From a virus (Duplodnaviria; Caudoviricetes), in the IMG/VR virus record IMGVR_UViG_3300025735_000007, positions 32,001 to 96,000 of that record: a DNA stretch of 64,000 bases; one strand, written 5' to 3'. The position numbers and the translations under genes were made by a program. Below are positions 4,938 to 59,013 of the stretch, piece after piece. Every line of letters begins with the position of its first letter. The first letter of the stretch is position 1. The notes beneath the pieces were generated by a model, which searched no databases, had not been told where the DNA came from, and saw only the letters and a list, made by a program, of their open reading frames with translations.

Positions 4938-5459
4938 GTGGCAAGCGATACAAAGAACGTAAAGATGGGCGTTTGCCTGGTCTACTACAAGGGCATCGAT
5001 CTGGGCTACACCCAGGGCGGCGTCCAGGTGACGGTGACCACGCAGACCCATAAGACCAACGTCGACCAGTTCGGCAAGACGACCGTCAACGAACAGATCA
5101 TGTCGCGTGACGTGTCGGTCAAGGTGCCGCTGGCAGAAACGACGCTGGACAACCTGGTTGCAACGATGCCGGGCGCGTCGATCGTCGGCACGGGCACCGA
5201 CAAGAAGGCGATCGTGACCTCCGGCGTGGGCGTGTCCCTGCTGGACCTCGCGGGCGAGCTGCGCCTCCACCCGAAGGGCCGCGCGGCCGACGACTACAGC
5301 GAAGACTTCGTGATTCCGCTGGCAGCGACCTCGGGCGGTCTGTCGTTCGCTTACGAAGTCGAAAAGGAACGCATTTTCGACACGACCTTCACTGGCTACC
5401 CGGACCCGGTTACCGAAGAGCTGTTCGCGATCGGTGGCGCGCCCGTCGTCGCGCCGTAA
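4938..5459 (+). CDS. Major tail tube protein
   Basis: GTG start after AAGGAG; DLGYTQGGV motif; synteny. Confidence 0.75.
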   Translation: MASDTKNVKMGVCLVYYKGIDLGYTQGGVQVTVTTQTHKTNVDQFGKTTVNEQIMSRDVSVKVPLAETTLDNLVATMPGASIVGTGTDKKAIVTSGVGVSLLDLAGELRLHPKGRAADDYSEDFVIPLAATSGGLSFAYEVEKERIFDTTFTGYPDPVTEELFAIGGAPVVAP

Positions 5460-5470
5460 CAGGCAAGAAA

Positions 5471-5488
5471 TAAGTAACAAGTGACTGA
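5471..5488. promoter_or_regulatory. 18-bp palindromic operator
   Basis: TAAGTAA CAAG TGACTGA. Confidence 0.7.
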
Positions 5489-5533
5489 ACAAGGCCGGCT
5501 GATGCCGGCCTGCCCACATCGGAGTAAAGGCAC

Positions 5534-5902
5534 ATGAGCAAGAACGCCGGAAATATCAAGATTCTGAACCTCGACACGCTGCCGACGAAGGCACCGCAAC
5601 GCCAGATCACGCTGGGCGGCGTCTCGTATGACGTGCGCGAAATGAACGTCGAGGACTTCATCGAAACGAACCTCGCGGCCGAGCGCCTCGAAGGGGTGAC
5701 CGATCCGAAGATCCAGCTCGCCGAAATGATCGCGTCGATCCGCCGCGCGGTGCCGGACGTGCCGGAAGACGTGCTGAACAAGCTGCCGCTCGAAAAGCTC
5801 GGCGTGCTGAGCGCGTTCATTCGCGGCATGTTCGACCCGGATGCGACTGACGTCGAAGGCGCCGCGCCTGCCGGCGAAGCTGAAGGCGACGCAAAAAAGT
5901 AA
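5534..5902 (+). CDS. Tail assembly chaperone (lambda G-like)
   Basis: Between tube and tape measure; ends in slippery GCA AAA AAG TAA. Confidence 0.8.
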   Translation: MSKNAGNIKILNLDTLPTKAPQRQITLGGVSYDVREMNVEDFIETNLAAERLEGVTDPKIQLAEMIASIRRAVPDVPEDVLNKLPLEKLGVLSAFIRGMFDPDATDVEGAAPAGEAEGDAKK

Positions 5903-6237
5903 GCGCAGCTGGGGAAGGCAAGCCCGATGAACTCGACTTCGGGCTCGTCTTCACCCGGGTCCAGCTGCACTACGGCCTGACCTATTGGGAAGTGATGGAG
6001 CTTCCCATTCGCGCTTTCTGGACCCTGAACCGCAACATCAACCGGCTGCTCGCGGAGACCGATCTCCGTGCCCTGATGTTGCACGTATCCCGCCAGAGCA
6101 GTGAAGGCTGCGCGGCATACGAAGCCAAGCTCCGAGCCGAGGTGTATGCGGCGAAAGAAACCGATCCGCTGAACGCGGAGCGGGACGAAGCGGGCTTCGC
6201 GGAGCTGAAGGCGATGGTGGCCCGTCCAGCACAGTAA
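5893..6237 (+). CDS. Frameshift extension of tail chaperone (lambda T-like), reached by -1 shift
   Basis: -1 frame open from A AAA AAG (5893-5899) to 6237. Confidence 0.75.
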   Translation, partial: KKVSAAGEGKPDELDFGLVFTRVQLHYGLTYWEVMELPIRAFWTLNRNINRLLAETDLRALMLHVSRQSSEGCAAYEAKLRAEVYAAKETDPLNAERDEAGFAELKAMVARPAQ

Positions 6238-6247
6238 CAGGACGACG

Positions 6248-9200
6248 ATGAACAACCTCGAGAACATTGGCTACAACCTGATTCTGGATGACTCGGGTTT
6301 CCGGGTCACCGCGCAGGCCACCAACGCACAGCTAAAGGCACTCGAAGCGCAGTTTGCCTCCACCGGGCAGGGTGTGAAGGCGATCGAGGACAAGATCAAC
6401 TCCGCGGGTGTGACCTTCCACCAATGGGTCACCACCATCGGCGCGCTCAAGTTCGCGCTGATGGACCTCGATAGCGTCTTTCTGTCGCTGCCCAAATCCA
6501 TCCTCGAAACCGCCGGCGAGATCGAAAAACTCCAGGTCGTCCTGAAGGGTCTCTCCACGGCCGCTGACGACGCCGGCCGCGCGGCCGACGCGACGATCGG
6601 CAAGAACTTCATCCTGAACCTCGAGCAGAACGTCCCGTTCAAGCTCCAGGCGCTCACCGACACATTCGTCAAGCTGAAGACGGTCGGCATCGACCCGATG
6701 AACGGCTCGATGGAGACGCTGCTTAACGAGGTCGCCAAATACGGCGGTAGTTCCGAACAGCTCAAGAGTGCCTCGCTCGCTATTCAGCAGATGGCCGGCA
6801 AGGGCGTCGTCTCGCTGCAGGAGTTGCGCATGCAGCTCTCGCAGGCGATCCCGGGCGCCGCGCAGCTGATGGCTGATGCGATGGGTATGTCGATGGGCGA
6901 CCTGACCAAGGCGATCAGCAAGGGCACGGTCGCCTCCGAGGGCGCCATCAAGAAGATGCTGGCCGCCTTCTCGCTCGACTCGATGGGCGCCGGCCGCGCG
7001 CAGATGGAAACCTGGGTGGGCACGCTGGAGAAGCTGAACACCAAGTGGGATCTGTTCAAGGTGGACGTGGCCGATGCCGGGCTCTTCGCCGCGGCCAAGG
7101 CCGAGCTGAACGACATGATGTCGCTCTTCGGCACGTCGCAGGCGAAGGAGTGGGCGCACAGCCTGTCGAGCGAGTTTGTCTCGATGATCAACCTCTTTCA
7201 CGATGGTCGCGTCGCTCTACAGGAATACCTGCCGCAGCTCATCGAGCTCGGCAAGGTCGTCCTCACGGTGGTCTCGGTAACGGTCGTCGCGAGCTGGCTC
7301 GGCGGGATGCGCAACGCGCTGACGGGCATCGTCACGGCCTACCAGGAATACGCGGCCAATGCGATCGCCGCGGAGGGCGTGGTCGCTGCCAAGAAGCTGT
7401 CGGTGACCGAGCAGATCCTTGCGGCCGACGCCAAGCGCCGCGAGTCGATCGCGATGGAAAGCGAACTGCGGCAGGAAGCGCTCGCGCGCGAGATCGCGAA
7501 TAACCAGCGCATGATCGTCGAGAACGACAAGCGCGTCGCGGCGATCGACGCCGCGCGCCAGGCAGAGCGCGCCGCGGAAATCGAGAACAACGCGCAGATC
7601 CTCGCCTCGAAGATCGCACTCTACGAAGAACTCACGGCCCGCGAAGTCGAGGCAACGGCCTTCGTGCAGGCCGAGCAATACAAGCGCGCCCAGATGGGGC
7701 TCGCGAGCAACGCGGCGACCGCGGCCGAATACGCCGCGCAGGCAAAGTTCACAGCAGAGGTGGAAGGTCGTCTCGCGTCGATGCGCGCCGAGATCGGGCT
7801 GCTGGAGGCCGAAGCCATTGCACTGCGCGAGCGCAACGCGCTGCTGATGGCAGCCACTGCTGCTGAAATCGAGAATGCCGGCGCCATGTCGAGCTCGAAC
7901 GCCGCGCTTGTCGAAAAGAACGCCGCGCTTGCGACGGCCATCGGCGCCGAGCGCGTCGCGATCGCCAACATGGCCGAAATGACCTTCGGCACCGCGGCGC
8001 TCAAGACGGGCCTGATGGGCTTGCAGTTCGCGTTCAACGCGGTCGGCGGCTGGCTCACGGTGCTCGCGGGCATCATCATCGGCGGCATCGCGCTGTGGGA
8101 CCGCTACGCAGAAGCGTCCAAGCGTGCGGCCAACGCAGCGCTCGACGCGGCCAATCTGAAGCGTTCCATCGCGCAGGGCGACGTCAGCAAGGAGCAGCTC
8201 GATAAGTCTGACGCTCACATCGGCGACCAGAAAAGCAAGATCGCCGGGCTCGAAAACCAGCTGTGGGAGGCGGAGAACGCCCACTCGGGCACGAACGGCG
8301 AATATGTGCCGGCCGACCCGACACGCGCCAACCAGCTGCGCGCCCAGCTCGCGGCGGAAAAGTCGGCGTTGGCTGATCTCGTTGCCCAGCGCGCGGAAGC
8401 GAAGAAGACTCTCGACGAGAGCGACGCGAAGCTCCAGGCATCCAAATACGCCACGAGGTATCAGGGCGACACCGACGCGCAGATCGAGCAAATCGCGAAG
8501 TCCGGCCAGAACCAAGTCTCGGCGATCAAGAAGCGCTACGACGACCTGATGCAGACCATGGACAGCCAGTCGCCGGCCTACAAGGCGGCGGCCGACAAGC
8601 GCGCGAAGGAGGTCCAGGCTGCCATCCAGAAGGGCACCGCGGACATCGCGGCGGCATACGACGCGCGCGACAGGGAACTGCGCACGAAGATCGACAACGT
8701 GTCAGGCCCGGACGCGTCGTTGCAGAAGGCTGCGCTCGAGAAGGAGCTCGCGCGCGTGCGGCAGGAGGCGCAGAACGCCCAGAGCACGATGAATAACGCG
8801 CTCGCGCCGAACCAGTTCCTTGCGCCGAAGAATACCGGCGGCCACGTCGCGGCGCCGACCGACTTTCTGGAAAAGGCGCTGGACCATGTGAAGGTCCAGC
8901 TCGCGGGCGCGACCGAGCAGCTGCGCCAGATCCAGACCGGCGCGACCGAATACGACAAGCTGCGCAAGGGCGTCGAAATCCAGGTCAAGGAAATGGTCGA
9001 CGCCGGCCAGCTCGATTACGTCACGCACGGCAAAAACGGCAAGCGCACCACGCCGAGCATGGATGACGCTGACGTCCAGCAGCTCATCGACGACAAGACG
9101 GCGCTCGCGATCGTCAACAACGCCAAGCAGCAGCTCGCGCAGATCAAGCAGAAGCTCGCGCCGGCCGAGGAAGAGCTCAAGCGCTCGCTCGCGCTGTTGC

Positions 9201-11705: not shown

Positions 11706-12101
11706 ATGAATAAGTCACACATGACTTACACAGACTTGCTCGGCCGACCGTTTTCGATGGGCGGCCGCGGACCCGACGAATTCGATTGCTATGGGCTCGT
11801 CAAGTTTCTGATCGAACGCGACACGGGGCACTCAGTGCCGGATTACGTCACCCCGGCGGCAATGGGCGCGGTGCACGCGCTGATGATTGTCTCGCGCGAG
11901 TTCTGGACTCGGCTGCCGGGGCCGAAGGTGGGCTCGATGGTGTTCTTCAGGCTCGGGCGCCAAGTCTGCCACGTTGGCTATGTGATAAGTCACACGTTAT
12001 TTATTCATGCGTGGGAAAAATCAGGCGGCGTGACGATCGAACGGCTCGCCGCCTGGGAAAAACGGATTGATGGATTCTATGAATACACCGAAAAAGCGTA
12101 A
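11706..12101 (+). CDS. NlpC/P60 tail protein (lambda K-like)
   Basis: FDCYGLV, HVG and FIHA catalytic motifs; start may be 11721. Confidence 0.8.
   Translation: MNKSHMTYTDLLGRPFSMGGRGPDEFDCYGLVKFLIERDTGHSVPDYVTPAAMGAVHALMIVSREFWTRLPGPKVGSMVFFRLGRQVCHVGYVISHTLFIHAWEKSGGVTIERLAAWEKRIDGFYEYTEKA
11711..11728. promoter_or_regulatory. 18-bp palindromic operator (perfect arms)
   Basis: TAAGTCA CACA TGACTTA. Confidence 0.75.
11986..12003. promoter_or_regulatory. Intragenic 18-bp operator upstream of the J-like gene
   Basis: TAAGTCA CACG TTATTTA. Confidence 0.6.
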
Positions 12102-15100: not shown

Positions 15101-17652
15101 GCTATGTGCTGCCGGGCGTGAAGAAGGGCGACAACCTCGCGGTGCGCGTCCAGTCGTTTGACATCTGGGGCAAATACTCCGCCTATGACCAGGCGCCTAC
15201 GGTCAACTACAAGGTCGTGGGCAACGTGACGAACCTGTCGTCGGCCGCCGTGTCGGGTGCGGATTTCTACTGGTCCGGGCGTGATTGCAAGCTCTTCTGG
15301 AACTACAACTCGACGACCGCATCCTTTGAATTCGGTTCCGAGCCAGAAGGCGCGCCGGGCACGCGCGACCCGCACTTCCAGGACTACGAGATCCGCATCT
15401 ACGACCTGCAGCACAAGCTGTTGCGCACCGAACATACGACGGACAACAGCTACGTCTACACGTATGAGAAGAACTTCTCGGACGGACTGCACCGGCACGT
15501 CACCTTCGAAATTGCTGTGCGTGATATTTTCGGCAATATCGGCAAGCCGGCGGTGCTCGATGCCTATAACCCGCCGCCGACCGTGGTAACTGCGGCGACC
15601 AACGCGGCCTTCGATCGTATCCAGATCAACTTCACGCACAGCGACGACCCGGACTACGCCGGGGCGCGAGTTTTCCTGCGCTGGTCGGGCGACGTAGGGA
15701 CGACGCCGACACTCGCCTACGACGGCCCGGACACAGCCGTGCTGATGTCGAATCTGATGTTCAATACGGACTATTACATCACGATCGTCCCGTATGACGC
15801 GTTCGGGTTGGACGAGACTATCCCGAGCAACGAGATCCACGTCCACACGCCGTTTCTCGATGTGGAGGCCATCGCGGAGGGCGTGCTCAAGGACTCACAG
15901 CTGATTCCGGCGCTGCAAACCCGCATCGACCTCGTGGATGCGCCTGAGTCGATCATCGGCTCGGTGAATCAGCGCCTGGCTGACGCGAAGGCCAAGCTCT
16001 CGGGCGATCTGACAGCCGCAATCACACAAGAACAGCAGCTCCGGCAAGGCGCGGACAATAGCCTCGCCTCTCAGGTGACGACGCTCGTGTCGGCGAGCAA
16101 CGCGAATACTGCGGCAATCACCTCCGAACAGACAGCACGCACGACCGCCGATCTGGCACTTGGCACACGCATCGACACAGTTGCGGCAAGCACGGGCAAC
16201 AACACCGCGGCGATTCAGACGGAGATCACCGCACGCACGTCAGCCGACGCAGCGCTTGGCACCCGCATCGACACGGTGGCGGCTGCATACGGGATGGACG
16301 CCACGAACCTGTGCGCGAATCCGGTGGCGGCCGGCGGGCTCACGACTGGATGGGACACACCGACGGCAGTCTTGGGCACTGCGCTTGACGTGCCTGCCGC
16401 GGCACCAGCGGCGTATGTGTTCCGCCAGAACATCCGCGATGCGCGCTATACGACGCGCGTCGTGTCTGTTACTGGCGGCCAGCAGCATTACCTCGAAATG
16501 CGCGCGGCCACGCCGGTCGCCGCGGTTCCGATCAGCATCGGCATGCGCTTCACGGCGCCCGGCAAGACGGACGTCTATGCCTGGGCGGCGACGCTTAACT
16601 CGACGTCGGTGTGGACGCGTCTCGCAGGCATGGTTACGGTCCCGGATGGCTACACGAGCGCCGAGCTGAGGGTGATGATCGACTTCGGCGCAGGCGTCAC
16701 CAACGACAAGAACCGCTGGTATTACACGGACGTCGAGTGGCGCCCGGCAAGCCTGACGCAGCCGGCGATGGCCGCGATCAGCGTCGAGCAGACGGCGCGC
16801 GCGAGCGCGGACGGTGCGCTTTCAACCCGCATCGACAGCGTGAATGCGTCGCTCGGCACGACCAACGCAAACGTGCAGACCGAGATCAACGCGCGCGCGG
16901 CGGGTGACTCCGCAAACGCCAGTGCGATCTCGCAGCTGACCACCACGGTCAACGGCCACACGACCTCGATCCAGACCGCGCAAAGCTCGCTCAATGGCCT
17001 GAGCGCGCAATACACGATCAAGATCGACAACAACGGCCATGTGTCGGGCTTTGGCCTCGCGTCGTATCCGGTCAACGGCGGCATCGTTAGCGAGTTCGCG
17101 GTGCGCGCCGATACGTTCTCGATCCAGTTGCCCGGCTATCCCGGTGTGCACCCGTTCACGGTGGGCGGCGTCGATGGTCAGGCGCGCGTGATCATCAGCA
17201 GCGCGCTGATCGGCGACGCCGCCATCAGCACGGCCAAGATCGGCGACGCACAGGTCAACTCCGCAAAGATCGCCTACGCGGCGATCAACACCGCGCACAT
17301 CGGCACCGCGCAGATCGACACACTGCGCATCGGCGCGAACGCCGTGTCGACGCTCGCCATCTGGGGTCTAGGCTCGGGCGGCACGGTCCAGTATCAGGCG
17401 GGCGGCGGCACGCTGATGGTGTTTGTCAGCGCGTTCATCGGTAGCCATTCCGGTTCTGACGGCGGCCAGGACTTCGCTGGCTCTGTCGTCGTCCAGATCA
17501 ACGGACAGACCATCGTGACCATTTCGAATGGGTCACCCGCCTTCCAGACGAACTTCGGCATGACTGGGTTGGCTCCCGGGGTTTACAACGTGACCGCGAG
17601 CGGTAGCAACGCGCGAGGCATCACGGTCGCGGTTTTTGAATCGAAGCGATAA
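12079..17652 (+). CDS. Central tail tip/host specificity protein (lambda J-like) with fused I-like N-terminus
   Basis: PVPVPYG, GEGPI, FN3-like region, TARxxAD repeats, YTIKID..G.VSGFGL, FAVRAD and xAKI repeats. Confidence 0.88.
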   Translation: MNTPKKRKAAPQFVRVRRITNPFEPMRDLRDEQWKWRKTYTLADYLPLGETADVVLSVNGQVVEREHFAKTKLQPTDFVVICPVPRGGDGGKGILRIIGMIVIAVASVYTGGAASAAYGPMAGAAAAAAVTVAGTLLLNAILPPAAATNSMNGGLASSSSYGVDGAKNTSSEMIPVPVPYGTFRTAGNVIGVHTEANGNDQILYMLINAGEGPIASITDIEINGRKINEFAEVSVQTRLGDPLQTPIDWFSSVITPYQKNQEIPKDGSYLTFATEGDVEAVRLDINFPSGLYAVDMKSGSVVENKIALEADYRIAGSNGSWTPFSSQPATYEMVQVQPVTSVGIGNLPDQRLAYVDGDSGIPWDGTQVITDLHITTPVGTVLDTTRDAIFAKFGSYIGQNIGSWPVGSGGIVATSVAIPPQPGALVIKEKLRSVVRRSYTSPQLPMGKYEVRLRRDANYIDYGANKAGVGLTNTEATSSSDCYVSDLNEIVYAGVGHNHTALLALRVKLDEQLSGIPTVTFVNGGRIITTFQRANGVITTKEAATNNAAWVQWDALTHWRYGAGIDGGRLDLSAWIDWAEYCGANGLTFDGVFDTTMNAWDASNYIARAGHAQLVPVGTRYSIIIERPSEPVMLFGMGNIVEGTFKQSWMSRTDRATEVDVTFFDKTDSYKQKTVKVTDSAAALEGRPQNPSAITAYGVVDIKRAYLEGALQMNINRYLTQTCEWDSPIEALACTHGDVVLVQHDQPAWGFSGRTESGSTASVVKLDKLVTMEAGKTYKLLLLGSTAVRNTGTIGSVSGTFIAVPTPPNVRIRRIRNAAGVETAVKTVVSDGVYAESTTGFAPGQRVTFYDTDVIEEHDVVVQPGETDAVTVTAPLSFVPDVFTNYLFGETTKVKKPFRITSITLGSTDMQRHLSALEYRAEVYDLSSYADVANTLTPPLLDPRQAAIGVVQNLSVYEETYVAGALILTDVRASWVQPLIGNYAGADVFLQINGGDFNKVGTVKVGTSYVLPGVKKGDNLAVRVQSFDIWGKYSAYDQAPTVNYKVVGNVTNLSSAAVSGADFYWSGRDCKLFWNYNSTTASFEFGSEPEGAPGTRDPHFQDYEIRIYDLQHKLLRTEHTTDNSYVYTYEKNFSDGLHRHVTFEIAVRDIFGNIGKPAVLDAYNPPPTVVTAATNAAFDRIQINFTHSDDPDYAGARVFLRWSGDVGTTPTLAYDGPDTAVLMSNLMFNTDYYITIVPYDAFGLDETIPSNEIHVHTPFLDVEAIAEGVLKDSQLIPALQTRIDLVDAPESIIGSVNQRLADAKAKLSGDLTAAITQEQQLRQGADNSLASQVTTLVSASNANTAAITSEQTARTTADLALGTRIDTVAASTGNNTAAIQTEITARTSADAALGTRIDTVAAAYGMDATNLCANPVAAGGLTTGWDTPTAVLGTALDVPAAAPAAYVFRQNIRDARYTTRVVSVTGGQQHYLEMRAATPVAAVPISIGMRFTAPGKTDVYAWAATLNSTSVWTRLAGMVTVPDGYTSAELRVMIDFGAGVTNDKNRWYYTDVEWRPASLTQPAMAAISVEQTARASADGALSTRIDSVNASLGTTNANVQTEINARAAGDSANASAISQLTTTVNGHTTSIQTAQSSLNGLSAQYTIKIDNNGHVSGFGLASYPVNGGIVSEFAVRADTFSIQLPGYPGVHPFTVGGVDGQARVIISSALIGDAAISTAKIGDAQVNSAKIAYAAINTAHIGTAQIDTLRIGANAVSTLAIWGLGSGGTVQYQAGGGTLMVFVSAFIGSHSGSDGGQDFAGSVVVQINGQTIVTISNGSPAFQTNFGMTGLAPGVYNVTASGSNARGITVAVFESKR

Positions 17653-18342: not shown

Positions 18343-21300
18343 ATGGCTCAGCTCAAACAGGTTTGCACCGTCACCAACGGCTCGCAAACCGTAGCGGTGA
18401 TCGGCGTAAATGTGGCTTACCGCATTCTCGCCAACAGCATCTTCATGACGTCGCCCGACTTTGTGCCCTACACGGTTGCGAGGGATGCGCAATTCGACGG
18501 CACGAACACGGTGGTCACGCTCGCGGCTGAGTATCAGGGCGACAGCGGCGCAATGGCGCAGGGCGTGTTCGTTACCGACTTCACCTACCCGGACAATATC
18601 CCGCTCATCAGCCAGGGCGACGTCGGCACTGCCGCGATCTGGACGAAGGCGATGTATACGCTGCAGGCCATGATCGGCTCGGTAACGCCCGCCGGCCTGA
18701 ACGCGTTCATCGCGCAGATCAACCAGACGCAGGCTGCCGCTGATGCTGACGCTGCCGCGGCGCTGGCCTCGCAGAACGCGGCCAAGACGTCGGAAACGAA
18801 CGCGAAGACATCGGAGACCAGTGCCGCCGCAAGCCAGTCGGCGGCGGCCACCAGTGCGACCAACGCAAAAACGTCCGAGACAAACGCGAAGACCAGTGAG
18901 ACGAACTCGGCTGCGTCGGCCAGTGCGTCTGCGGGCTCCGCGACGGCATCGTCGAACTCGGCGACGGCTGCCGCCGGCTCCGCGAGTGCGGCATCGACGA
19001 GCGCAAGTAATGCGAGCGGCTCGGCGTCGGCCGCTGCCGCGTCGAAGACGGCAGCCGGCACGAGTGAAGCCAACGCGAAGACGTCGGAAACGAACGCTGC
19101 GGGCTCTGCAGCAGCGGCGCTTGCTTCGCAGGACGCGGCGAAGACCAGCGAAACGAACTCGAAAACCTCCGAGACCAACGCAAAGACTTCGGAAACCAAC
19201 GCCAAGACGAGCGAAACGAACGCGAAAACGTCAGAGACCAATGCGGCCGCATCTGCAACTAACGCCGCGGTTGACCGCGCGACGGTGCAGGGCATTCTGA
19301 CGACGATGAATGCGCTGTATCTCGGCAATAAGGCGAGCGACCCTACTGTCGACAACAGCGGCAATGCGCTCAAGCAGGGCGCCGAATATTTCAACACGAC
19401 CACGCAACTGCTGCGCGTCTACACGAGCACGGGCTGGCAGAACTACGACAAGGACGCGCAGACGCAGGCAACCAACGCGACCGCGAGTGCTGCGGCCGCG
19501 GCAGGTTCGGCGTCGGGCGCTGCCACGTCGGCGACGAACGCACACACCAGTGAGACTAATGCAGCAGCATCGGCGGCGGCCGCGCTCGCGTCGCAGAATG
19601 CCGCCAAGACCAGCGAGACGAACGCCAAGACGTCTGAGACGAACGCGAAAAGCTCTGAGACGAACGCGCAGACTAGCGAATCGAACGCCAAGACGAGCGA
19701 GACGAACGCCGCGGCGAGCGCTGCCCATGCCGATCAGGTCGCCCAGACCATCGGCAACCCAGTGTCCAAGAATGGCGACACGATGACGGGCCAGCTCGGG
19801 ATCGCGTATGCGGGCGCGACGGAGATCCTGAACGACACCTCCGGCTCGACCCAGTTCGGCTATGGTTACCAGTCGGGCGGCACGCCGCTCTGGGCGATGT
19901 GGGTTGCCACGTCGAAGAACTGGCTGCTGCAGCGCTACGCGAATGGCGTGGCCGTCGATAACCCGATCTCGGTATCTGGCTCGACCGGTGTCGTCAGCAT
20001 GCCGAGCCGCGTGCTAGTCGGCGCAGGGGCAGACGACGGCTCAAATTCGCTGCAGGTTGGCGGCAGCATGCGCGCCGACAACTACTACATGCTGGCTCAG
20101 GGCACCGGCGACGCAGGCACGATTGGGTGGGGCAACAGCAACGGCCCGGCAATCGGCATGTATGGGAGCGCAACGGGGTCTGCAGGCGCGTTTGTGCTCA
20201 AGACTGCCGGTGTGGAGCGAGTGCGTCTGAATGGGGCAGGCCGTTTGCTCGTTGGCACTGCCACCGATGACGGCGCGAACCTGATGCAGGTGAACGGCAA
20301 CGTCTCGCTCGTCGGCGCCGGCCCGAAGATCACGTTCAACGCAGCTGGCCCATTTGTCAACTCGCCGTCCGCGAACGTGCTGGCGCTCTCGAATGGCTCG
20401 GCCGAAGTCTTCCGTCTGAGCGCGGGCGGCCGCCTGCTGGTTGGAACGACGACTGACGACGGCGCGAACGTGTTGCAGGTAGCCGGCGCCGCAAAGGTCA
20501 GCGGAGTGCTGACGGCAACTGCCGGTGGCACTTTCTCCGCGGCCGCCTTCGTTGACATGGTGTCCACCGCTACGACCGCACAGCTCAGCTTGAAAGGATC
20601 GAGCGGTGCGCTCAGCACCGAAAGCAAACTGCGCTTCTATGGCACCTTCGGCACCGGTTCGGATCTGGGCACGCGTCTGGTCGCGTCCATGCGCGCCGGC
20701 TTCAATGCGGGGACGTGGGGTAAGGAATACCTCGACTTTTACCTGAACAGCGCGAGCAACGACGCGCAGAGCGACGCCAACCAGTCGCGCGTGCTGCGAC
20801 TGGCATATGGCGGTCGCGTGATCGTCGGCACCAATGCGGTCGACGACGGAGTCAACCGTCTCCAGGTCAGCGGTAACGTGGCGCTCTCTGGCGCCATGAA
20901 GGTCGGCACCTACACGCAGCAGGTCGAGATCAACGGCGACTCTTACACGGCCGTCAACGCCTATTACGACGGCACGAACTGGCAGCGCATCGACACAACC
21001 AAGCCAGCGTGGCTGTTCCAGAGCAACGTCACGAACGACATGACGTTCGAAGGCTACAAGGGGCTGTCGTGGTGGGTGTGCCAGCCGGGCACGAACCCGA
21101 TTGGTAACTGGGGCGCGGCTAACGGCTGGACGCTGATTCAAAGCTATTCGCAATACCACGACGTCACGCTCGGCGGGAACGGTTTTGAAATCGACGGTAA
21201 CGGCACGCTGCCGTATGGTCGTTTCCAGCACGCGACCGTCGGAGGCCAGAAGCGAACCGGCGTGATGACCAACGCCTACATCGATGAGTCCGGGCGCGAC

Positions 21301-28213: not shown

Positions 28214-29607
28214 TGTCGGCCGCCGCACCTGCACTGAGCGTAGTGCCGGCGGCGAGCGCGGCGGAAGAACCCGCAGTTGAGAAATTTAATTTCGACGGCG
28301 AGTTCCAGGCACGCATCGCCGCACTGACCTTGCGCGACACGACGTTCAACCAGCTCGTCGACGGATTGCTCAAGCCTGAATACTTCGAGTCCGAGATCGA
28401 GGCGTATCTCGTGGGCGTCGTGCTGCGCTACTACGGGAAATACAAGAAGGCGCCCGCCGGGCTTCCCATCTACGCGATGCTGATCCGTGAAGACCTCGAG
28501 GCGAAGGTGCTGCCCAAAGCGCTCGCCACCGCGGCTGTGGGGCGGCTCAAGGAGCTCTTCTCGGTCGATATTTCGGATCGCGACTACGTGGTCGATCAGG
28601 TCGCCACGTTCGCCCGCCATCAGGCGGTGCAGGACGCGATGTATAAGGCGATTCACAAGCTCGACAAGAAAGACTTTGACGGCATCGCGTCGGTCATGCG
28701 CACGGCGCTCGACGTGGGTGCCAACCAGGACGGCGACTGCTACGACTTCGCCGAAATGGTCGATCACCGCACGGGCATCCGGCTCGAGCGCGCGGCGGGC
28801 AAGCTGCCGCCGATGGGCATCACAACGGGCTACAGGCCGATCGACGAGCTCCTGTATCACAAGGGCTGGGGAAAGAAGGAGCTCTCCGTCATTCTCGGAG
28901 GCGCAAAGGCCGGCAAGACGACCGCGCTGATCGACTTCGGCATCAACGCGTGGGCAGACGGCAAGAACGTGCTGTATGCGTCGCTTGAAGTCGGCCGCGA
29001 TGTGATCGCCGACCGGATGGACTCGAACATCAGCGCGCAGGCGATGATGGAAATGCACCACCACACGCACGAGGTCCGCGCGAAGGTGGCCGAGTTCGCG
29101 CAGAAGGCGTTGCGCGCCGACGGCTCTAAGGCGAAGTTCATTGTCCACGAGTTCCCGACCGGCTCGCTGAAGGTATCGGACCTGCGTCGCTTGATCGAGC
29201 GCTACCGCTCGCAAGGCATCCTGTTCGATCTGGTCGTGGTCGACTACGCGGACCTGATGTGCCCGGAGCGTCACACCGACAGCGCGGTCGAGAACTCCAA
29301 GTCGATCTACGTGGATCTGCGCGGTCTCGCGATTCGCGAAGAACTCGCCGTGCTTACTGCGACACAATCGAACCGCAACGGGATCAACGCGAACATCATC
29401 AAGGCCGAGCACGTCGCAGACGACTTCAACAAGATTCGTATCGCCGACATCGTGATCTCGATCAACCGCACGGATGAAGAACGCGCGGCCGGCAAGGCGC
29501 GACTCTACTTCGCCGCGTCGCGTAATCAGGGCGGGGAGTTTACGATTGAGATCGAGCAGGCGTTGGACCGGATGAAGTTCATTACCCGCGTGCTCGGATT
29601 CGTTTAA
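28213..29607 (+). CDS. dnaB: Replicative DNA helicase (DnaB/SF4)
   Basis: GITTGY, GGAKAGKT, SLE, VVVDYADL, TATQSNR motifs. Confidence 0.88.
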   Translation: MSAAAPALSVVPAASAAEEPAVEKFNFDGEFQARIAALTLRDTTFNQLVDGLLKPEYFESEIEAYLVGVVLRYYGKYKKAPAGLPIYAMLIREDLEAKVLPKALATAAVGRLKELFSVDISDRDYVVDQVATFARHQAVQDAMYKAIHKLDKKDFDGIASVMRTALDVGANQDGDCYDFAEMVDHRTGIRLERAAGKLPPMGITTGYRPIDELLYHKGWGKKELSVILGGAKAGKTTALIDFGINAWADGKNVLYASLEVGRDVIADRMDSNISAQAMMEMHHHTHEVRAKVAEFAQKALRADGSKAKFIVHEFPTGSLKVSDLRRLIERYRSQGILFDLVVVDYADLMCPERHTDSAVENSKSIYVDLRGLAIREELAVLTATQSNRNGINANIIKAEHVADDFNKIRIADIVISINRTDEERAAGKARLYFAASRNQGGEFTIEIEQALDRMKFITRVLGFV

Positions 29608-29617
29608 GGAGGGATCA

Positions 29618-29824
29618 ATGGCTGCATTGACAGGGCGGGCGCTTTTTCTCGAAAAGTCAGCGCTTCACGATTTGCTCGACGAGCTGGAAGAGGCCGACTA
29701 CAAAACGTCGACCGTGGAGGAGTTCAGTTCGCTGGGTGAGGCGATGATTGCCGCCGGCATGACCGGCATCGCCGAGAAGCTGCGCAGTCTCAAGGCAGCA
29801 GTGGCAGGCGAGTATGGCGACTGA
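29618..29824 (+). CDS. Small hypothetical protein
   Basis: Strong AAGGAGG RBS. Confidence 0.55.
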   Translation: MAALTGRALFLEKSALHDLLDELEEADYKTSTVEEFSSLGEAMIAAGMTGIAEKLRSLKAAVAGEYGD

Positions 29825-30914
29825 CGATCTCAACGAGCTCCTCGAGCGCGTGGACATGGCTGCGTGGCTCGATCGCGAGGGTATCTCCTATCGGGAGACG
29901 CACGGGCGGTCGGGCCAGCAGCTTAACGTGCGCGAGTGCCCGACCTGCGGCAACCACGACTGGAAGGTGTATCTGAATGCCGAAACAGGCGTGGGCAACT
30001 GCTTCGGCGGCTCGCACCCGCACGAGGAGCGCATCTTCACGAAGTATCGGTTCATCCGTGCCCATCTCGGCTGCCCGCCGGGTGGCGCGGTGGTCGAACA
30101 CATTCGACTGTTCGCGCATGAAATGGGCTGGCGGCCCGCACGACGAGTATCGGCCAAGGTCGAGAACGCGCCCGCTGCATGGTCGCTCCCGCAGCACGTC
30201 ACGCTGCCGCACAACGGACGGAACATTCCGTATCTGGAGAACCGCGGGATCACCGCGGAGCTCGCGCAGTATTTCCATCTGGGCTACTGCCCGAAGGGCT
30301 CCAGCTTTCGCTACCTGACCGAACAGGGCTATGCCTTTCAGGACTACAGCCGGCGCATCCTGATCCCGGTGTATGACCTCGACGGCAAGATCGCGACGTT
30401 CCAGGGTCGCGATGTGGTGGGCACTACCGAGAAGAAATACCTGTTCCCGCCGGGCATCGACGGATCGGGCGTGCACCTCTTTAACGGGCTGAACGTCCGT
30501 GACACGAAGCGCATCATCGTCGGTGAGGGCGCTTTTGACGTTGCGGCCACGAAGATCGCGATCGACGCCGATCAGGACTTGCGCGACGTGGTGCCGGTAG
30601 GCACGTTCGGCAAGCACCTGAGCTCCGGCAGCGAGAACAGCCAGTTCGCTAAGTTCATGGCCCTCAAGGCGCGCGGCGTCGAGGAGATCACGATCATGTG
30701 GGACGGCGAGATTCAGGCGACCGACGACGCGGTAGAGGCGGGCCTCATGCTGGCATCGAATGGCTTTCGCATGCGCATCGCGATGCTGCCGAAAGAGAAA
30801 GACCCGAACGAAGTGCCGGCCGAAGTCGTGCGCGCGTCGTTCTACCAGGCGACCGCGCTTAGCAAGCGCACGGCTGCCGAGATAAGGCTGAAACGTCGCA
30901 AAATGAACACATAA
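29814..30914 (+). CDS. DNA primase (Zn finger + TOPRIM)
   Basis: CPTC...C, YLENRGI, GEGAFD, WDGE, KDPNE. Confidence 0.88.
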   Translation: MATDDLNELLERVDMAAWLDREGISYRETHGRSGQQLNVRECPTCGNHDWKVYLNAETGVGNCFGGSHPHEERIFTKYRFIRAHLGCPPGGAVVEHIRLFAHEMGWRPARRVSAKVENAPAAWSLPQHVTLPHNGRNIPYLENRGITAELAQYFHLGYCPKGSSFRYLTEQGYAFQDYSRRILIPVYDLDGKIATFQGRDVVGTTEKKYLFPPGIDGSGVHLFNGLNVRDTKRIIVGEGAFDVAATKIAIDADQDLRDVVPVGTFGKHLSSGSENSQFAKFMALKARGVEEITIMWDGEIQATDDAVEAGLMLASNGFRMRIAMLPKEKDPNEVPAEVVRASFYQATALSKRTAAEIRLKRRKMNT

Positions 30915-30963: not shown

Positions 30964-31440
30964 ATGTCCGGGTTCAAGATCAAGCGCCGATTCGCCCATC
31001 ACGAAGGCGGCGCGAAGGCTTATCAGATCCACGAGATCACCAATGGTGCGACAAGCGTCGTTGTTTTCCAGTTCGGCAAGTTCAGAACGGGCGATGACCC
31101 GGTGAGCATGGGCGGCACGATCGACATTCACGGCGCCTTCGGGGTGGCGGGCGCGATGCGCGAAGCCGACAACAAGGAAAGCGTAAAGACGCGCAGGGGC
31201 TACAAGGAATGGGAAGTCGATACGGCCGTTTTCGCGACCAAAGCAGAGCTCCGAGAAGTGCTGGTGAAGATGTTTGGCGCGCACAAAGCGGACACGATCC
31301 TTCAGTCCCTTGAAGCCGGGGCGGTGCCCGCTGTATCCGAAGAACCGCCAACACCCGGTGTCGAAAATAGCGTCAAGGGCAAAGAGAAAGCGCCCGCACC
31401 CAAAACTGAAGAATCCTTGCCCGAATGGGGCACCTGGTAG
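30964..31440 (+). CDS. WGR-like domain protein
   Basis: GGAKAYQI...VFQFGK...A...K...KTRRGY matches the WGR pattern, with FGK for WGR. Confidence 0.5.
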   Translation: MSGFKIKRRFAHHEGGAKAYQIHEITNGATSVVVFQFGKFRTGDDPVSMGGTIDIHGAFGVAGAMREADNKESVKTRRGYKEWEVDTAVFATKAELREVLVKMFGAHKADTILQSLEAGAVPAVSEEPPTPGVENSVKGKEKAPAPKTEESLPEWGTW

Positions 31441-31446
31441 GAGAGA

Positions 31447-32121
31447 GTGATGACCACCGAAGCCACGAAACCGATCCTGCCGCCGAGCGCCTCCGCCGAC
31501 GGCAAGCGCAACGCGTATTACACGCAGTGCAAGGCGATCGAGTCGACCAAGCCGTATGCGATGTGCCAATACATCATCGACCACCAGAACGACGGCTCGA
31601 TGGCGACCATCTATAGCGACTGCCTCAACGCGATCCGCCGGGGCAACTGCGCCGCGGTCGGCATGCGCGAGGAAGAGCTGCTCAAGGGCCAGGCGATCTA
31701 CTTCGTCGAGCGCGTGAAGGGTGCCGCGGTCGTCGCGCAGCAGGACGCGTGGGTGCCGCCAGTTCGCAAGGCGTCGCGCTCGGGCTACGTGCGTGACAAG
31801 TATGCCGCCGGCCGGCCGATCGAAGACGCGCCGCGTATCGCGATCCCCCGCCCAGCAGCGCCCGCACCGGCGAAGCCCGCCTACGAGTTCGACGGGAACA
31901 TCTACGCGGCGGCACTGAACGTCGCCATGAAGAAAGACGCTAGCGCAACTAACCGCCAGCCCGATCCGAGCCCGGCCGCTGCTGTCGCAGCGCCGACACC
32001 AACCCCAGTCAGCAAGCCGGTGGCCGCTTCCGCACCGGCTCCGACAGTCACGATCCGCGCAGGGGAGTCGCCGCTCGAGCTGGCACGCCGCCTTCGCGCC
32101 CAGCAGAACCAACTTTCGTAA
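31447..32121 (+). CDS. Hypothetical protein (Cys-containing N-domain, Pro/Ala tail)
   Basis: RBS and coding bias. Confidence 0.6.
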   Translation: MMTTEATKPILPPSASADGKRNAYYTQCKAIESTKPYAMCQYIIDHQNDGSMATIYSDCLNAIRRGNCAAVGMREEELLKGQAIYFVERVKGAAVVAQQDAWVPPVRKASRSGYVRDKYAAGRPIEDAPRIAIPRPAAPAPAKPAYEFDGNIYAAALNVAMKKDASATNRQPDPSPAAAVAAPTPTPVSKPVAASAPAPTVTIRAGESPLELARRLRAQQNQLS

Positions 32122-54513: not shown

Positions 54514-55587
54514 ATGACGCCATACGGGCTTCTATCAGACACGCATTGCCATAACTGGTCCGCCTTCGCGCAGACCGATGACGACCTCATCAACACACGC
54601 CTCGTGATGATCCTCGACGAGATCGAGCGCTGTGCCATCGAGACTAAGAAAGCGGGCGGTAATACGGTGTATCACGGGGGCGACCTGTTCCACGTTCGCG
54701 GCTCGATCGAACCGAGCGTGCTGAACCCGACACGCGCCCGCTTCGAACATATCTACCGGCAGCATGGCGTGAAATTCCGCCTGCTGCCGGGCAATCACGA
54801 CCTTGAGCACAAGCACAGCAACGCCGTCGGCAACTCGGTCGAGGCGATGCGCGGTGAGTGGGTCGAAGTCAATCACGGTCCGACGTTCTACCCGGAGCAC
54901 CCGGTGACGGCCACGCTTGAAGGCGTGCAGATGGTCCCGTGGGTCGAGCGCGTGCAGGACTTCAAGGACAACATCGAAACTTGGGGACTTGACCGCGCGT
55001 GCCGCGCGAAGCGCGACCTGATCATTCACGCGCCGATCGACGGCGTGATCGAGGGGCTGCCCGACCACGGACTCACCGGCGAATGGCTCGCGGAGCTCGG
55101 CTTCAAGCGCGTGTTCAGCGGCCACTACCACAACCACAAGGAAATCATCCCGGGCAAGGTCTGGTCGATCGGCGCGCTCACGCACCAGACGTGGGGCGAC
55201 GTCGGCAGCAAGGCCGGTTTCCTGATCGTAAGCGACGCGGGCGTCAAGTGGCACAGCACGCATGCACCGCAGTTCGTGGACATCGACGCGTCGATGGACC
55301 CGTCCGAAGTCTCGTTGCGCTGCGATGGAAACTACGTGCGGGTCAAGGTCCAGAACGCGAAGCCCTCCGAAGTGAGCGCGATTCGCGACGGCCTGATGAA
55401 GCACGGCGCGCTCGGCGTGAATGTGAACGTCGTCAAGGTGCCGGTGACCGGCCGGCCGACAGTGAGCACCGTCAAAGCGGGCGCCTCGGTTGAAGTGCAA
55501 GTGACCGACTACATCAAGAGCGCGGGCTTCGAACATGCGGAGCTCGTCGCACAAGCAGCAATCAACGTTCTCGCGGAGGCGGTGTAA
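54514..55587 (+). CDS. SbcD/Mre11/gp47-like nuclease
   Basis: SDTH, GDLFH, GNHD, GHYH. Confidence 0.88.
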   Translation: MTPYGLLSDTHCHNWSAFAQTDDDLINTRLVMILDEIERCAIETKKAGGNTVYHGGDLFHVRGSIEPSVLNPTRARFEHIYRQHGVKFRLLPGNHDLEHKHSNAVGNSVEAMRGEWVEVNHGPTFYPEHPVTATLEGVQMVPWVERVQDFKDNIETWGLDRACRAKRDLIIHAPIDGVIEGLPDHGLTGEWLAELGFKRVFSGHYHNHKEIIPGKVWSIGALTHQTWGDVGSKAGFLIVSDAGVKWHSTHAPQFVDIDASMDPSEVSLRCDGNYVRVKVQNAKPSEVSAIRDGLMKHGALGVNVNVVKVPVTGRPTVSTVKAGASVEVQVTDYIKSAGFEHAELVAQAAINVLAEAV

Positions 55588-57548
55588 TGGACTTTCTCAA
55601 ACTGCGGGCGGTCAACTTCCTGACGCTCGGTGACTCGGGCGACCTCTCGCTCAAGGATCGCGGGCTCGTCCTAATTCAGGGCGTGAACAAGGACGACACA
55701 TCGACCGAATCGAACGGCGCAGGCAAGTCGTCTATCGCCGACGCGCTGTGCTGGGCGCTGTTCGGCACGACCGCGCGCGGCGAGTCGGGTGATCAGATCA
55801 TCAACGAAAAGGCGAAGAAGGGCACGTATGTGAGCCTGTCCCTGCAGGACGGCGAGACGATCTACGAGATCCGCCGCCATCGCAAGGACAAGCAGTTCAA
55901 GAACGCGACAACGATCACGCGCTGGAATCCGGCCGAGAGCTTCTTCAATGGCGCGGTGGGCGAGCGCATCGAGAAGGGCACCGAGAAGGAAGTGCAGCCG
56001 CAGATCAACGAAATCATCGGCTGCAACTACGACGTGTTCAAGTCGGCGATCTACGCCGGACAGGAGGACATGCCCGACCTGCCGAAGATGACCGACAAGC
56101 CGCTGAAGATGCTGATCGAGAAGGCGGCCGGCATCGAGCGGCTGGAGTCGGCCTACACGATCGCAAACCGCAAGCGCGACGAAGCCGTCGCCGCGGTCGA
56201 GAGTGCCACCAAGCAGATCGGCTCGCACGAGGCGCACATTGTGAACTGGAAGGTCTCGCTCTCGCAGGCTGAGACCAGCCACGCCGCGTTCGAAGCTGAG
56301 CGCCCCAACGTGCAGGCGGGCTGGACGGGCCGGGCCACGACGATCGCCGATGCGCTGCGGCAGAACTTCGAGACCTACAAGGGGCTCGGGGAGGCCGCGC
56401 TTGTCGCCGAGCGTGACCAGCTGCAAGCGATCCTCGCAGATCACAACAAGTTCACGGTGCAGCGCAACGAGCTGATCAAGACAGAGAGCGCGGCGGCAAC
56501 CGCGCACCGCGTGCGGCTCGCCGACTTTGAGCGCGTGCGCTCACACGCCGTCGCCGCCAGCGAAGCGATCAAGAACGCGCCGGCGGCGATGGCGAAGCCC
56601 TGCACCGAATGCGGCAAGCCGCACACCGCCGAAGAGCTCGACGAGTTTGTCGCACATCAGCGCAAGCGCGCGATGGAACTCGCGGTCGAGGCGGGCCAGA
56701 TCCAGTCCGAAGTGACGGAGCTCCAGAATGCGGCCGCCGCCGCTGCGAAGGCAGTCGAAGACTTCACCGCGACCATCCCTGATGTGTCGGCGACCAGCGC
56801 GCGCCTCGCGCAGGTGAATCAAACACTTCAGACGTGCCACCAGCTGAAGAACATGATCCAGCAGCAGAAGGCTGAGCACGACCGCGCGAAAGCCGAAGCC
56901 GAGAAGGCGCTCACCGTGGTCAACCCGCACCAGTCGGCGATCGATATGGGCCGTCAGCAGATCGCCAAGATTGAGGCTGAGATCGAGTCGATCAAGGCGG
57001 GTGCCGTCGAGCTCATGGAGGCGGTCGAGATCGCCGAGAGCGTGGTGAAGGTCTTCAGCCCCGGTGGCGTGCGCGCGCAGATCCTCGACACGGTGACGCC
57101 GTTCCTGAACGACCGCACCTCCGATTACCTGTCGTCCCTGTCGGACGGCAATATCAGCGCCGTCTGGTCGACGCTTTCGACCACCGCGAAGGGCGAGCTC
57201 CGGGAGAAGTTCAACATCGACGTCGAGAACGCCACGGGCGCGAAGACGTTCGGGGGTCTGTCGGGCGGGGAAAAGCGCAAGGTGCGGCTCGCGACGATGC
57301 TCGCGCTGCAGGACTTGGTTGCCTCGCGCGCGACGAAGCCGCTGTCGCTGTGGGTTGGCGACGAGATTGACGACGCGCTTGACGCCGCGGGCCTCGAGCG
57401 CCTCATGACGGTGCTCGAGCACAAGGCGCGTGAGAAGGGCACGGTGCTGATCATCAGCCACGAGTCGCTCTCCGACTGGTGCGACCAGATCGCCACGGTC
57501 ACGAAGCAGGGTGGTCAGTCCACCGTATCGGGGGCGCTGAGCGTATGA
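55587..57548 (+). CDS. SbcC/Rad50/gp46-like ATPase
   Basis: NGAGKSS, coiled coils, CTEC zinc hook, LSGGE, DE, ISH. Confidence 0.9.
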   Translation: MDFLKLRAVNFLTLGDSGDLSLKDRGLVLIQGVNKDDTSTESNGAGKSSIADALCWALFGTTARGESGDQIINEKAKKGTYVSLSLQDGETIYEIRRHRKDKQFKNATTITRWNPAESFFNGAVGERIEKGTEKEVQPQINEIIGCNYDVFKSAIYAGQEDMPDLPKMTDKPLKMLIEKAAGIERLESAYTIANRKRDEAVAAVESATKQIGSHEAHIVNWKVSLSQAETSHAAFEAERPNVQAGWTGRATTIADALRQNFETYKGLGEAALVAERDQLQAILADHNKFTVQRNELIKTESAAATAHRVRLADFERVRSHAVAASEAIKNAPAAMAKPCTECGKPHTAEELDEFVAHQRKRAMELAVEAGQIQSEVTELQNAAAAAAKAVEDFTATIPDVSATSARLAQVNQTLQTCHQLKNMIQQQKAEHDRAKAEAEKALTVVNPHQSAIDMGRQQIAKIEAEIESIKAGAVELMEAVEIAESVVKVFSPGGVRAQILDTVTPFLNDRTSDYLSSLSDGNISAVWSTLSTTAKGELREKFNIDVENATGAKTFGGLSGGEKRKVRLATMLALQDLVASRATKPLSLWVGDEIDDALDAAGLERLMTVLEHKAREKGTVLIISHESLSDWCDQIATVTKQGGQSTVSGALSV

Positions 57549-58420
57549 ACGCCAAAATTGCGGCGGGCTTGAGGAAGAGGCAGTTCTCAAGCCCGTTCGA
57601 GGATCACTTCGAGACGCCAAAGAGCACGATCTCAATGAGCGGGCGCCAGATGGGTAAGTCAACTCTTATGCGCGAACTGGCCGAACAGCAGGAGAGCCTT
57701 GCGAGAGCCATCGTCCGGTCATCGCCATCGAGCATTGGTGCGGCGGCAACCACTGCGACCGCCGCGCCGCCTTGGGCGAGTAAGAGCGCGGAAGAGATCG
57801 TCGCCGATATGAAGCGCTTCGCGGAACAGCTTGAAAAGTCGGCACCCGTAACCAGCGGGGCGATGATCGGCGATGGTCTCATCACTGCCGCGAAGATTGC
57901 CTCGTCGCTGCCCTGGCCCGGCACCAAGCCGAACATGTTCGACGACATTGTGGCGTCGGCGTCCGGGATCGTAAACCTCACTGAGGAACAACCCATGAAC
58001 ACCTCGAAGGAAGAAGCCGCGAAGCAGCTTGCCGCGCAGATCAACCAGAAGATCACGACGACCATCAGGCCCGGGCCATTCAAGCTCGCCGGCCCGGCGC
58101 AACTGACGATCAAGACGCGCCAGTCGCAATACAAGAAAAAGGCGTTTCTCGGCGACGAGACGATGAGCCTGACGAGTGTCTATGGAGGCAAGCGGGAAGT
58201 GATCGCTGTGTTCAAGAACGCGCTGCCGGTCGACTACTCCTACATCGAGATTCCGCTGGCCGACGCCACGACGCAGCTCGCCGGGTTCAAGGAATATCTA
58301 GCGTCGCTGGGTGTGGCGGACATCGACACGATCGTCGCCGGCATCGAGCAGCAGAAGACACAGACCGCGGCCGCCGAGCGCGACGAATTGCTCGCTGACC
58401 CGGAATTCGCAAGCTGGTAA
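57545..58420 (+). CDS. Hypothetical protein with mosaic N-terminal half; internal start likely at 57995
   Basis: ATGA overlap with sbcC; in-frame ATG 57995 preceded by GAGGA. Confidence 0.55.
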   Translation: MNAKIAAGLRKRQFSSPFEDHFETPKSTISMSGRQMGKSTLMRELAEQQESLARAIVRSSPSSIGAAATTATAAPPWASKSAEEIVADMKRFAEQLEKSAPVTSGAMIGDGLITAAKIASSLPWPGTKPNMFDDIVASASGIVNLTEEQPMNTSKEEAAKQLAAQINQKITTTIRPGPFKLAGPAQLTIKTRQSQYKKKAFLGDETMSLTSVYGGKREVIAVFKNALPVDYSYIEIPLADATTQLAGFKEYLASLGVADIDTIVAGIEQQKTQTAAAERDELLADPEFASW

Positions 58421-58434
58421 CCGAGGACAGGAAG

Positions 58435-59013
58435 ATGAAACTGAAGATTGTTGGTCTGGACCCATCGCTCACCCACACGGGCATCGCGATCATGGAATAC
58501 GACGTTGCGGCGGCGGCACTCGACGTGTCGGAACTGCGGTTGATCGTCACCGAAAACCAGAAGGGTAAGCAGGTCCGTCAGAACTCGGACGACCTGCGTC
58601 GCGCCCGCGAGGTCGTTGCGGGCATACACAGCGCGTGTAATGGTGCGCTCTTTGCCGTGTCTGAAGTCCCGATGGGCGCACAGAGCGCGCGGGCAGCGCT
58701 CGCGTTTGGCATGGTCATTGGGATTCTTGCGAACCTGCCTGTGCCGTTGATTCAGGTGAGCCCGCTCGAAGTGAAGATGGCGGCGGTCGGGCACCGTCAG
58801 GCGGCGAAGGAAGAAATGATCGCCTGGGCAGTCGCAAAGCATCCGAATGCGGGCTGGCTTCTACAGGACAAGAATGGCGCGCGCCATAAAAAAGGCGACC
58901 TGAAAGCCGACAACGAGCACTTGGCCGATGCAGTCGCGGTCGGCGAGGCCGGGATTCTGACCGACCAGTTCAAGCAGGCAGTGGCGATGCTCAGCTTCGC
59001 GAAGGCAGCCTGA
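58435..59013 (+). CDS. RuvC-like Holliday junction resolvase
   Basis: VGLDPSLTHTG, SE, P.EVK..A.G...A.K, ADA. Confidence 0.85.
   Translation: MKLKIVGLDPSLTHTGIAIMEYDVAAAALDVSELRLIVTENQKGKQVRQNSDDLRRAREVVAGIHSACNGALFAVSEVPMGAQSARAALAFGMVIGILANLPVPLIQVSPLEVKMAAVGHRQAAKEEMIAWAVAKHPNAGWLLQDKNGARHKKGDLKADNEHLADAVAVGEAGILTDQFKQAVAMLSFAKAA

Follow-up and report, generated by a model that had tools for sequence, protein, structure and literature searches.

A swappable, partly terminase-like N-terminal extension on a conserved protein encoded beside phage SbcCD

The phage record IMGVR_UViG_3300025735_000007 is 106,295 bp long, with 61% G+C, and comparison of its SbcC places it near RHEph10-, phiK7B1- and SSU5-type phages. 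The window analysed here, a stretch of 64,000 nucleotides covering positions 32,001 to 96,000 of that record, carries directly behind its SbcD- and SbcC-like genes a gene that we call X, whose product joins an N-terminal extension of 150 residues to a conserved core. An earlier note on this DNA had pointed out terminase-, capsid- and tail-like motifs strung along the extension, and had proposed that it serves as an immune decoy. The comparisons reported here describe the extension as a selected and exchangeable set of peptide modules, one of which resembles, in several relatives, the Walker A strand of the terminase TerL. The features of the locus are as follows, in window coordinates (pLDDT, predicted local distance difference test).

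54514–55587 and 55587–57548, + strand: SbcD-like gene and SbcC-like gene, upstream of X, both with Pfam and PHROG matches
57545–58420, + strand: gene X (291 residues, P0001), N-terminal extension plus conserved core; its ATG overlaps the SbcC stop codon (ATGA)
57545–57994, + strand: N-terminal extension, residues 1–150, a lineage-specific insertion missing from most family members
57641–57718, + strand: module 1, GRQMGKST and a predicted helix (residues 38–58, pLDDT ~87)
57773–57841, + strand: module 2, PPW-ASKSAEEIVADM..., an amphipathic helix (residues 82–99, pLDDT 84–89) after a Thr/Ala-rich linker
57866–57901, + strand: module 3, IGDGLITAAKIA, one peptide of tail-fibre type within predicted disorder; 3 of 7 long forms have it
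57983–57997, + strand: GAGGA (57983–57987) and in-frame ATG at 57995 (Met151), a candidate internal start giving the core alone
57995–58417, + strand: core of X, a helix, a six-stranded SH3/Tudor-like barrel and C-terminal helices; tip DPEFASW at 58397–58417
58435–59013, + strand: RuvC-like resolvase gene (PF02075, phrog_159), directly downstream of X
17209–17244, + strand: J-protein repeat IGDAAISTAKIG, which resembles module 3

The motifs, the J repeat and the in-frame ATG with its GAGGA all lie where the earlier note had placed them, and the reading frame 57545–58420 is a genuine, coupled gene in conserved synteny. It follows SbcC and precedes the RuvC-like gene, from which it is separated by 14 bases, and the same slot directly 3' of SbcC is occupied in every contig examined (L001, L002, L004, L010 and L109). 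X lies in the replication/recombination block, apart from the late genes, and its translation is probably coupled to that of the SbcCD nuclease. A search of two very large protein sets gave 10 close homologues and 117 representatives; X itself had no match in a separate collection of phages. When longer forms were sought that might fuse a whole terminase domain to X, the search yielded only P0008, a protein of 383 residues from a 175-kb contig of a Pseudomonadota metagenome-assembled genome, in which an X homologue follows, in frame, ~190 residues from the N-terminus of SbcC; either most of SbcC was deleted or the join arose in assembly.

A translated and exchangeable extension

On the comparative evidence, the extension is translated and under purifying selection. 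The ratio of nonsynonymous to synonymous divergence (dN/dS) against the nearest relatives is 0.29–0.31 in the extension and 0.11–0.17 in the core, all length differences of the extension among relatives are in frame, its G+C content at third codon positions is 0.74 and the coupled start is conserved, so that the possibility of an untranslated stretch, which the earlier note had named as fatal to its proposal, falls away. Short forms of the protein begin with MSAR.. and long forms with MNAK.., which indicates that the extension was inserted after approximately codon 4 while the coupled start was kept. Almost half of its residues (47%) are Ala, Ser, Thr, Gly or Pro, and it is predicted to be mostly disordered apart from two helices: in an AlphaFold2 model built from a 22-row alignment, pLDDT is <50 at residues 1–35, 60–71, 103–129 and 139–149, and confident helices appear at residues 38–58, directly after the GKS, and at residues 82–99 (AEEIVADMKRFAEQLEK). 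At the search sensitivity used, no such extension was found in proteins outside the X family. A recent copy from elsewhere in the genome was also considered and rejected, as a blastn-short search of the entire genome with these 450 bases returned nothing beyond chance.

Comparison of the relatives reveals an extension built of modules, which phages that are otherwise near-identical have gained, lost, exchanged or put in another order. In the complete or near-complete relatives L094–L097, TerL is 85–91% identical and the architecture of the extension differs: it is absent from L094 and L097, consists of the P-loop module only in L095 (MNRVVLAGRRFGKT...) and of the Thr-rich linker and helix only in L096. 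Metagenomic relatives show further combinations of modules, with or without an additional F..EYL..F motif. Another pair, L009 and L010, has near-identical cores (synonymous divergence pS 0.035) and two different types of sequence over the first ~70 codons of the extension, which places a recombination junction inside the X gene. In the wider family, 60 of 124 members carry at least 25 residues ahead of the core; the pattern [RK][RQHE]xGK[ST] occurs in 15 of these 60 extensions, PG[YFA]-S/N/H-S/T in 23, and I..AKI-type or F..E(Y/F)...F peptides in a few. Motif order varies between these members, and the P-loop motif recurs in distant ones whose extensions otherwise defy alignment. Homologues thus lose, swap and reorder modules, which is the behaviour that the earlier note had suggested looking for.

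Whether the motifs are better conserved than their linkers was judged by mean pairwise identity among the seven long forms, and the answer differs between motifs. The identity is 0.77 for GRQMGKST and 0.51 for WASKSAEEIVADM (57773–57811), against 0.21 for the remainder, which consists of the linkers, and it is only 0.12 for IGDGLITAAKIA, so that the expected contrast holds for the first two motifs and fails for the third. The Walker-type residues are invariant in all seven long forms.

A DNA element overlaps the best conserved of these motifs. The heptamer TAAGTCA occurs 18 times in the window, against 1.6 expected, mostly in intergenic positions, either as TAAGTCAC-N3-TTACTATA(A/C)T or as a palindrome with TGACTTA (for example at 11711/11722, 18285, 42197, 48832, 53804 and 63652), and is likely to be an operator or promoter element of the phage. 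One copy does lie inside the GKS codons, at 57655, as had been cautioned. This copy is found in the window only and is not kept at the site in L008, L009, L010 or L001, so the DNA element does not account for the conservation of GKS. As far as such comparisons go, selection keeps the modules as peptide, not as DNA.

Likeness of the modules to terminase, capsid and tail proteins

The P-loop motif of module 1, GRQMGKST, occupies residues 33–40 of X (57641–57664). The pattern R[RQ]xGK[ST] is found in just two real open reading frames (ORFs) of the 106-kb genome, X and TerL (GRRWGKT). The phage TerL (positions 28774–30060 of the record, phrog_2) reads RFRVVTAGRRWGKTQLAK at this place, and the stretch is conserved across 81 related TerLs. 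Module 1 and the TerL N-terminus share a hydrophobic strand, the sequence (A/S/G)-G-R-(R/Q)-x-G-K-(T/S) and an amphipathic helix thereafter; they differ in that the module comprises only ~25 residues, lies in a region predicted to be disordered and has drifted in the window copy. Likeness beyond chance was assessed by ungapped BLOSUM62 comparison with all 446 ORFs of the genome, using 1000 shuffles for the window peptides. The 16-mers of module 1 from five relatives (P0014, P0006, P0017, P0013 and P0007) match the TerL Walker A strand better than anything else in the 446 ORFs, with scores of 41–51 that were reached in 0 of 300 shuffles, and the same five score 5.5–11.8 bits against a TerL profile, where the maximum of 295 shuffles was 3.7 bits. 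In L095, 10 of 12 residues of module 1 are identical to those of its own TerL (L015), nine of the ten use different codons, and the module differs from TerL at nearly all synonymous sites, which argues for protein-level selection or convergence, not for a recent copy. That a terminase-type Walker A look-alike is kept by protein-level selection in relatives appears well supported by these comparisons.

In the complete or near-complete relatives mentioned above TerL served as a yardstick of relatedness; in one further record, IMGVR_UViG_3300046694_000296 (L017/L019, 215,656 bp), it occurs twice, 106.6 kb apart, as if a genome of ~106 kb had been recorded as a concatemer of two copies.

The capsid likeness that had been read into module 2 found no such footing. 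Its KSAEEI 16-mer does no better than chance against the 446 ORFs (p 0.48), with no capsid match, and profile and ungapped scans of the module show no capsid or scaffold match above chance, which removes capsid mimicry from consideration. What remains is a weak 59-residue match to phrog_1650 (E value 0.004) and another to phrog_422 (E value 0.09); the phage's own capsid protein belongs to phrog_212, a family other than phrog_1650. No profile match covers the HK97 fold that a major capsid protein would have, and no likeness to the phage's own phrog_212 protein was seen.

Module 3 fares somewhat better. The two best genome-wide matches of the window ITAAKI 14-mer are both in J (p 0.017 over the 446 ORFs), and the tail-type peptide of P0078 likewise finds its best matches in J (p 0.007). 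The J likeness of module 3 that had been suggested is therefore above chance, if marginally so, in a module that is optional. At the DNA level, the comparison of module 3 with the J repeat gave nothing beyond chance. J carries its repeat in tandem copies, whereas X has a single copy in a disordered stretch and does not have the make-up of a J-type fibre. A fourth motif, absent from the extension of the window protein, is the F..E(Y/F)...F of P0101, whose best genome-wide match is the TerL hinge (p 0.003); it is the sole significant hinge case.

The conserved core, its tip and a possible internal start

The core, residues ~151–291, is the part of X that most of the family shares, and nearly all database matches cover residues ~150–291 only. 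Its AlphaFold2 model is confident (pLDDT 91.9). Scans of the Pfam and PHROG libraries placed it in no family of either; its fold resembles only generic small barrels of the SH3, Tudor or chromo type (Z ≤5.8, VIA), Foldseek against the PDB returned nothing at E ≤0.001, BFVD gave a single match, to an uncharacterised phage protein, and the ESM Atlas gave no usable match. The X family is nevertheless recognizable by the block GP..LT.K..(Q)YKK..F.G.E...Y.GK in its ~140-residue core, which is present here (alignments A1–A3), and by a C-terminal aromatic tip of the form [FWY]-[GA]-x-[WF]. The C-terminus of X, PEFASW, fits this tip, and W291 is invariant or nearly so; the proteins in the same slot of SSU5, phiK7B1 and RHEph10 end in WATW, FGGWA and FGRF, respectively.

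Similar tips were observed elsewhere. An unrelated protein of 158 residues, encoded at 30964–31440 (+ strand) of the window between the primase and ligase genes, ends in LPEWGTW after a Pro/Glu/Lys-rich linker, and the aromatic tip common to it and X may be a docking tag of replication/recombination accessory proteins. In the Pseudomonas phage phiK7B1 (L007), two successive genes behind SbcC (4952–6501) both bear a tip (FGGWA and IGGWS), with a homing endonuclease next in line; the pair may have arisen as tandem paralogues in the X slot. Outside the window, an open frame of 167 residues at 19083–19586 of the genome (– strand) ends in ARWGGW; it could encode a third protein with such a tip, or else be a spurious frame in antisense.

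Met151 and a purine-rich Shine–Dalgarno-like stretch ahead of it are conserved in relatives, including the short forms, so that internal initiation yielding the core alone appears possible. The family has no name and no assigned function, yet it sits in the SbcCD–resolvase block of a large group of phages that includes SSU5-like elements. If peptide mimicry were to fail as an explanation of the extension, the present work would still have defined, for phage SbcCD, a new and conserved accessory protein that shares a C-terminal docking tip.

Possible functions and comparison with known systems

The extension itself can be neither an ATPase nor a capsid protein nor a fibre. Module 1 lacks Walker B, the catalytic Glu, the ATPase fold and the nuclease domain of a TerL, and ~110 residues, mostly with pLDDT <50, separate its loop from the core. 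We infer instead that each module is a tethered peptide ligand, either a short linear motif or a helix that folds on binding, and we give an even chance to the reading that the extension is a cassette of such ligands, partly terminase mimics, grafted onto the conserved X. The X barrel with its aromatic docking tip would carry the cassette and be produced alongside the SbcCD nuclease, and a core-only form may also be made from Met151. The disordered flexible tail would hold independent modules, namely a strand/P-loop/helix, a Thr/Ala-rich linker with an amphipathic helix and an optional tail-fibre-type peptide; the P-loop module, a copy in sister phages of TerL's first strand and Walker A loop, would compete for whatever surface recognises that part of TerL. 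The tail of X shows that a terminase Walker A strand can persist under selection as a bare peptide, outside any ATPase fold, and can pass as a cassette among phages that are nearly identical. Should a host sensor or the packaging machine recognise this peptide, X would offer a simple example of phages mimicking by short motifs, a strategy that, to our knowledge, has so far been documented mainly for viruses of eukaryotes.

Several observations weigh against the cassette of peptide ligands. Most family members, close relatives included, have no extension, which shows it to be dispensable. In the window protein itself, the terminase likeness proposed for module 1 is at chance level, for the 19-mer (p 0.45) as for the 16-mer (p 0.16), and in neither case is TerL the best match among the 446 ORFs; against the TerL profile, the window module scores –1.7 bits. 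The terminase likeness thus holds for the five relatives and not for the copy in which it was first noticed, which is, by alignment, a drifted homologue of the terminase-type strand/Walker A/helix look-alike. In the P0093 phage, X reads PRRAGKS and TerL reads GRRWGKT, so that in this one test case module 1 does not track its own TerL. Finally, Pfam and PHROG scans of the extension-bearing homologues gave no terminase match and only weak generic AAA matches.

The immune decoy put forward originally may be regarded as a narrower form of the same idea. It holds that, early in infection and ahead of the genuine proteins, look-alike peptides of terminase and tail engage or dampen host sensors, be it Avs/STAND or another sensor of structural proteins; STAND receptors have been reported as sensors of core phage proteins (PMC13581612). 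The protein-level selection on the TerL-like module would suit this purpose, the fast gain, loss and swapping of modules among near-identical phages is what an arms race would predict, and the X gene stands in the replication/recombination block, not among the late genes. However, nothing ties X to Avs/STAND or to another immune sensor. Published Avs–terminase structures reportedly show the sensors holding on to folded domains, and a disordered peptide of ~25 residues would not provide these. For the capsid component there is no support, and module 1 does not co-vary with TerL in the P0093 phage. The named anti-Avs proteins, the ORF55 ligase and ORF83 (10.1101/2025.06.06.658234), are enzymes or folded proteins and not peptide mimics. 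On balance we consider a decoy unlikely. The fuller version, in which a temperate phage of ~106 kb and its relatives carry swappable look-alikes of late proteins on an early/middle protein of the recombination module and so block host sensors pre-emptively, strikes us as improbable too, the terminase P-loop strand being its clear component and the tail-fibre peptide a possible one. A decoy, conjecturally, would be a special case of the tethered peptide mimic.

It is also improbable, in our estimate, that the extension is a drifting leader of little function, that is, an old in-frame insertion, perhaps a piece of a former P-loop protein, which is tolerated because the core, also made from Met151, is the working product, the likenesses being generic effects of P-loops and low complexity. 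The absence of the extension from most relatives would fit such a leader, as would the conserved Met151 with its Shine–Dalgarno-like stretch and the chance-level scores of all window motifs other than the J-like one; moreover, in the module 1 profile search TerL leads the runner-up, likewise a P-loop protein, by only 3 bits. A leader free to drift should, however, show a dN/dS of ~1 and not ~0.3, and it would be hard to reconcile with Walker-type residues that are invariant in 7 of 7 long forms, with a motif that recurs in distant members whose extensions are unalignable, or with TerL matches (10 of 12) made through different codons.

A packaging coupler has, to our mind, a slim chance. Here the TerL-like element would act on the phage's own small terminase, TerL ring or portal, either to tether SbcCD and RuvC to the motor or to delay packaging until branched DNA has been processed. 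The position of X between SbcC and the resolvase agrees with this, and so does the combination of the TerL strand/P-loop likeness with a hinge-type F..E(Y/F)...F in some members (P0101); T4 endonuclease VII, likewise, associates with the packaging machine. Yet the hinge likeness is significant in one distant member only, the window copy does not have the motif, and most relatives package their DNA without any extension.

The strand/P-loop/helix is very unlikely to be a minimal phosphate- or DNA-binding element that, clustered if X oligomerises, holds the phosphate of nucleotides or DNA and assists X at DNA ends. In its favour, GK(S/T), the residues that contact phosphate in real P-loops, are indeed the invariant ones, X belongs to a DNA-end-processing operon, and peptides designed as beta-(P-loop)-alpha units bind both nucleotides and single-stranded DNA. 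Against it, the model shows no fold at the loop (pLDDT <50 at residues 18–35), Walker B and the rest of the domain are missing, and loop variants with Pro (PRRAGKS) occur.

The cassette of tethered ligands can be set beside several known systems. In Herelleviridae, ORF067 (gp67, PDB 4G6D) of Staphylococcus phage G1, which we take to be an anti-sigma factor, occupies the same slot directly after an SbcC-like gene, with an overlapping start and in a syntenic block of SbcD, SbcC, a resolvase and ribonucleotide reductase, and the slot behind SbcC in Lactobacillus phage Bacchae is annotated 'anti-sigma factor'. No link between the proteins themselves was found, hhalign giving a probability of 0.1% against a single sequence and 4G6D not being among the fold matches of the core, so that G1 ORF067 offers a positional analogy only. 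Ocr, which mimics DNA, DSAD1 acting against DSR2, and the T4 Gol peptide recognised with Lit are cases of phage mimicry or of recognition of a structural peptide. As may hold for X, what a host system reads there is a phage product in the likeness of some other molecule, or a short piece taken from a structural protein. Those products are folded proteins or natural capsid segments, whereas X would present short look-alike peptides on the disordered tail of an unrelated protein. In its overall design, X may work like the Nbs1/Xrs2 adaptors of Mre11–Rad50 and the C-terminal docking tips of SSB-type proteins, an analogy of working and not of homology: X likewise joins a compact folded part to a lengthy, motif-bearing disordered region and a conserved aromatic C-terminus, and is encoded together with a nuclease of the Mre11/Rad50 type.

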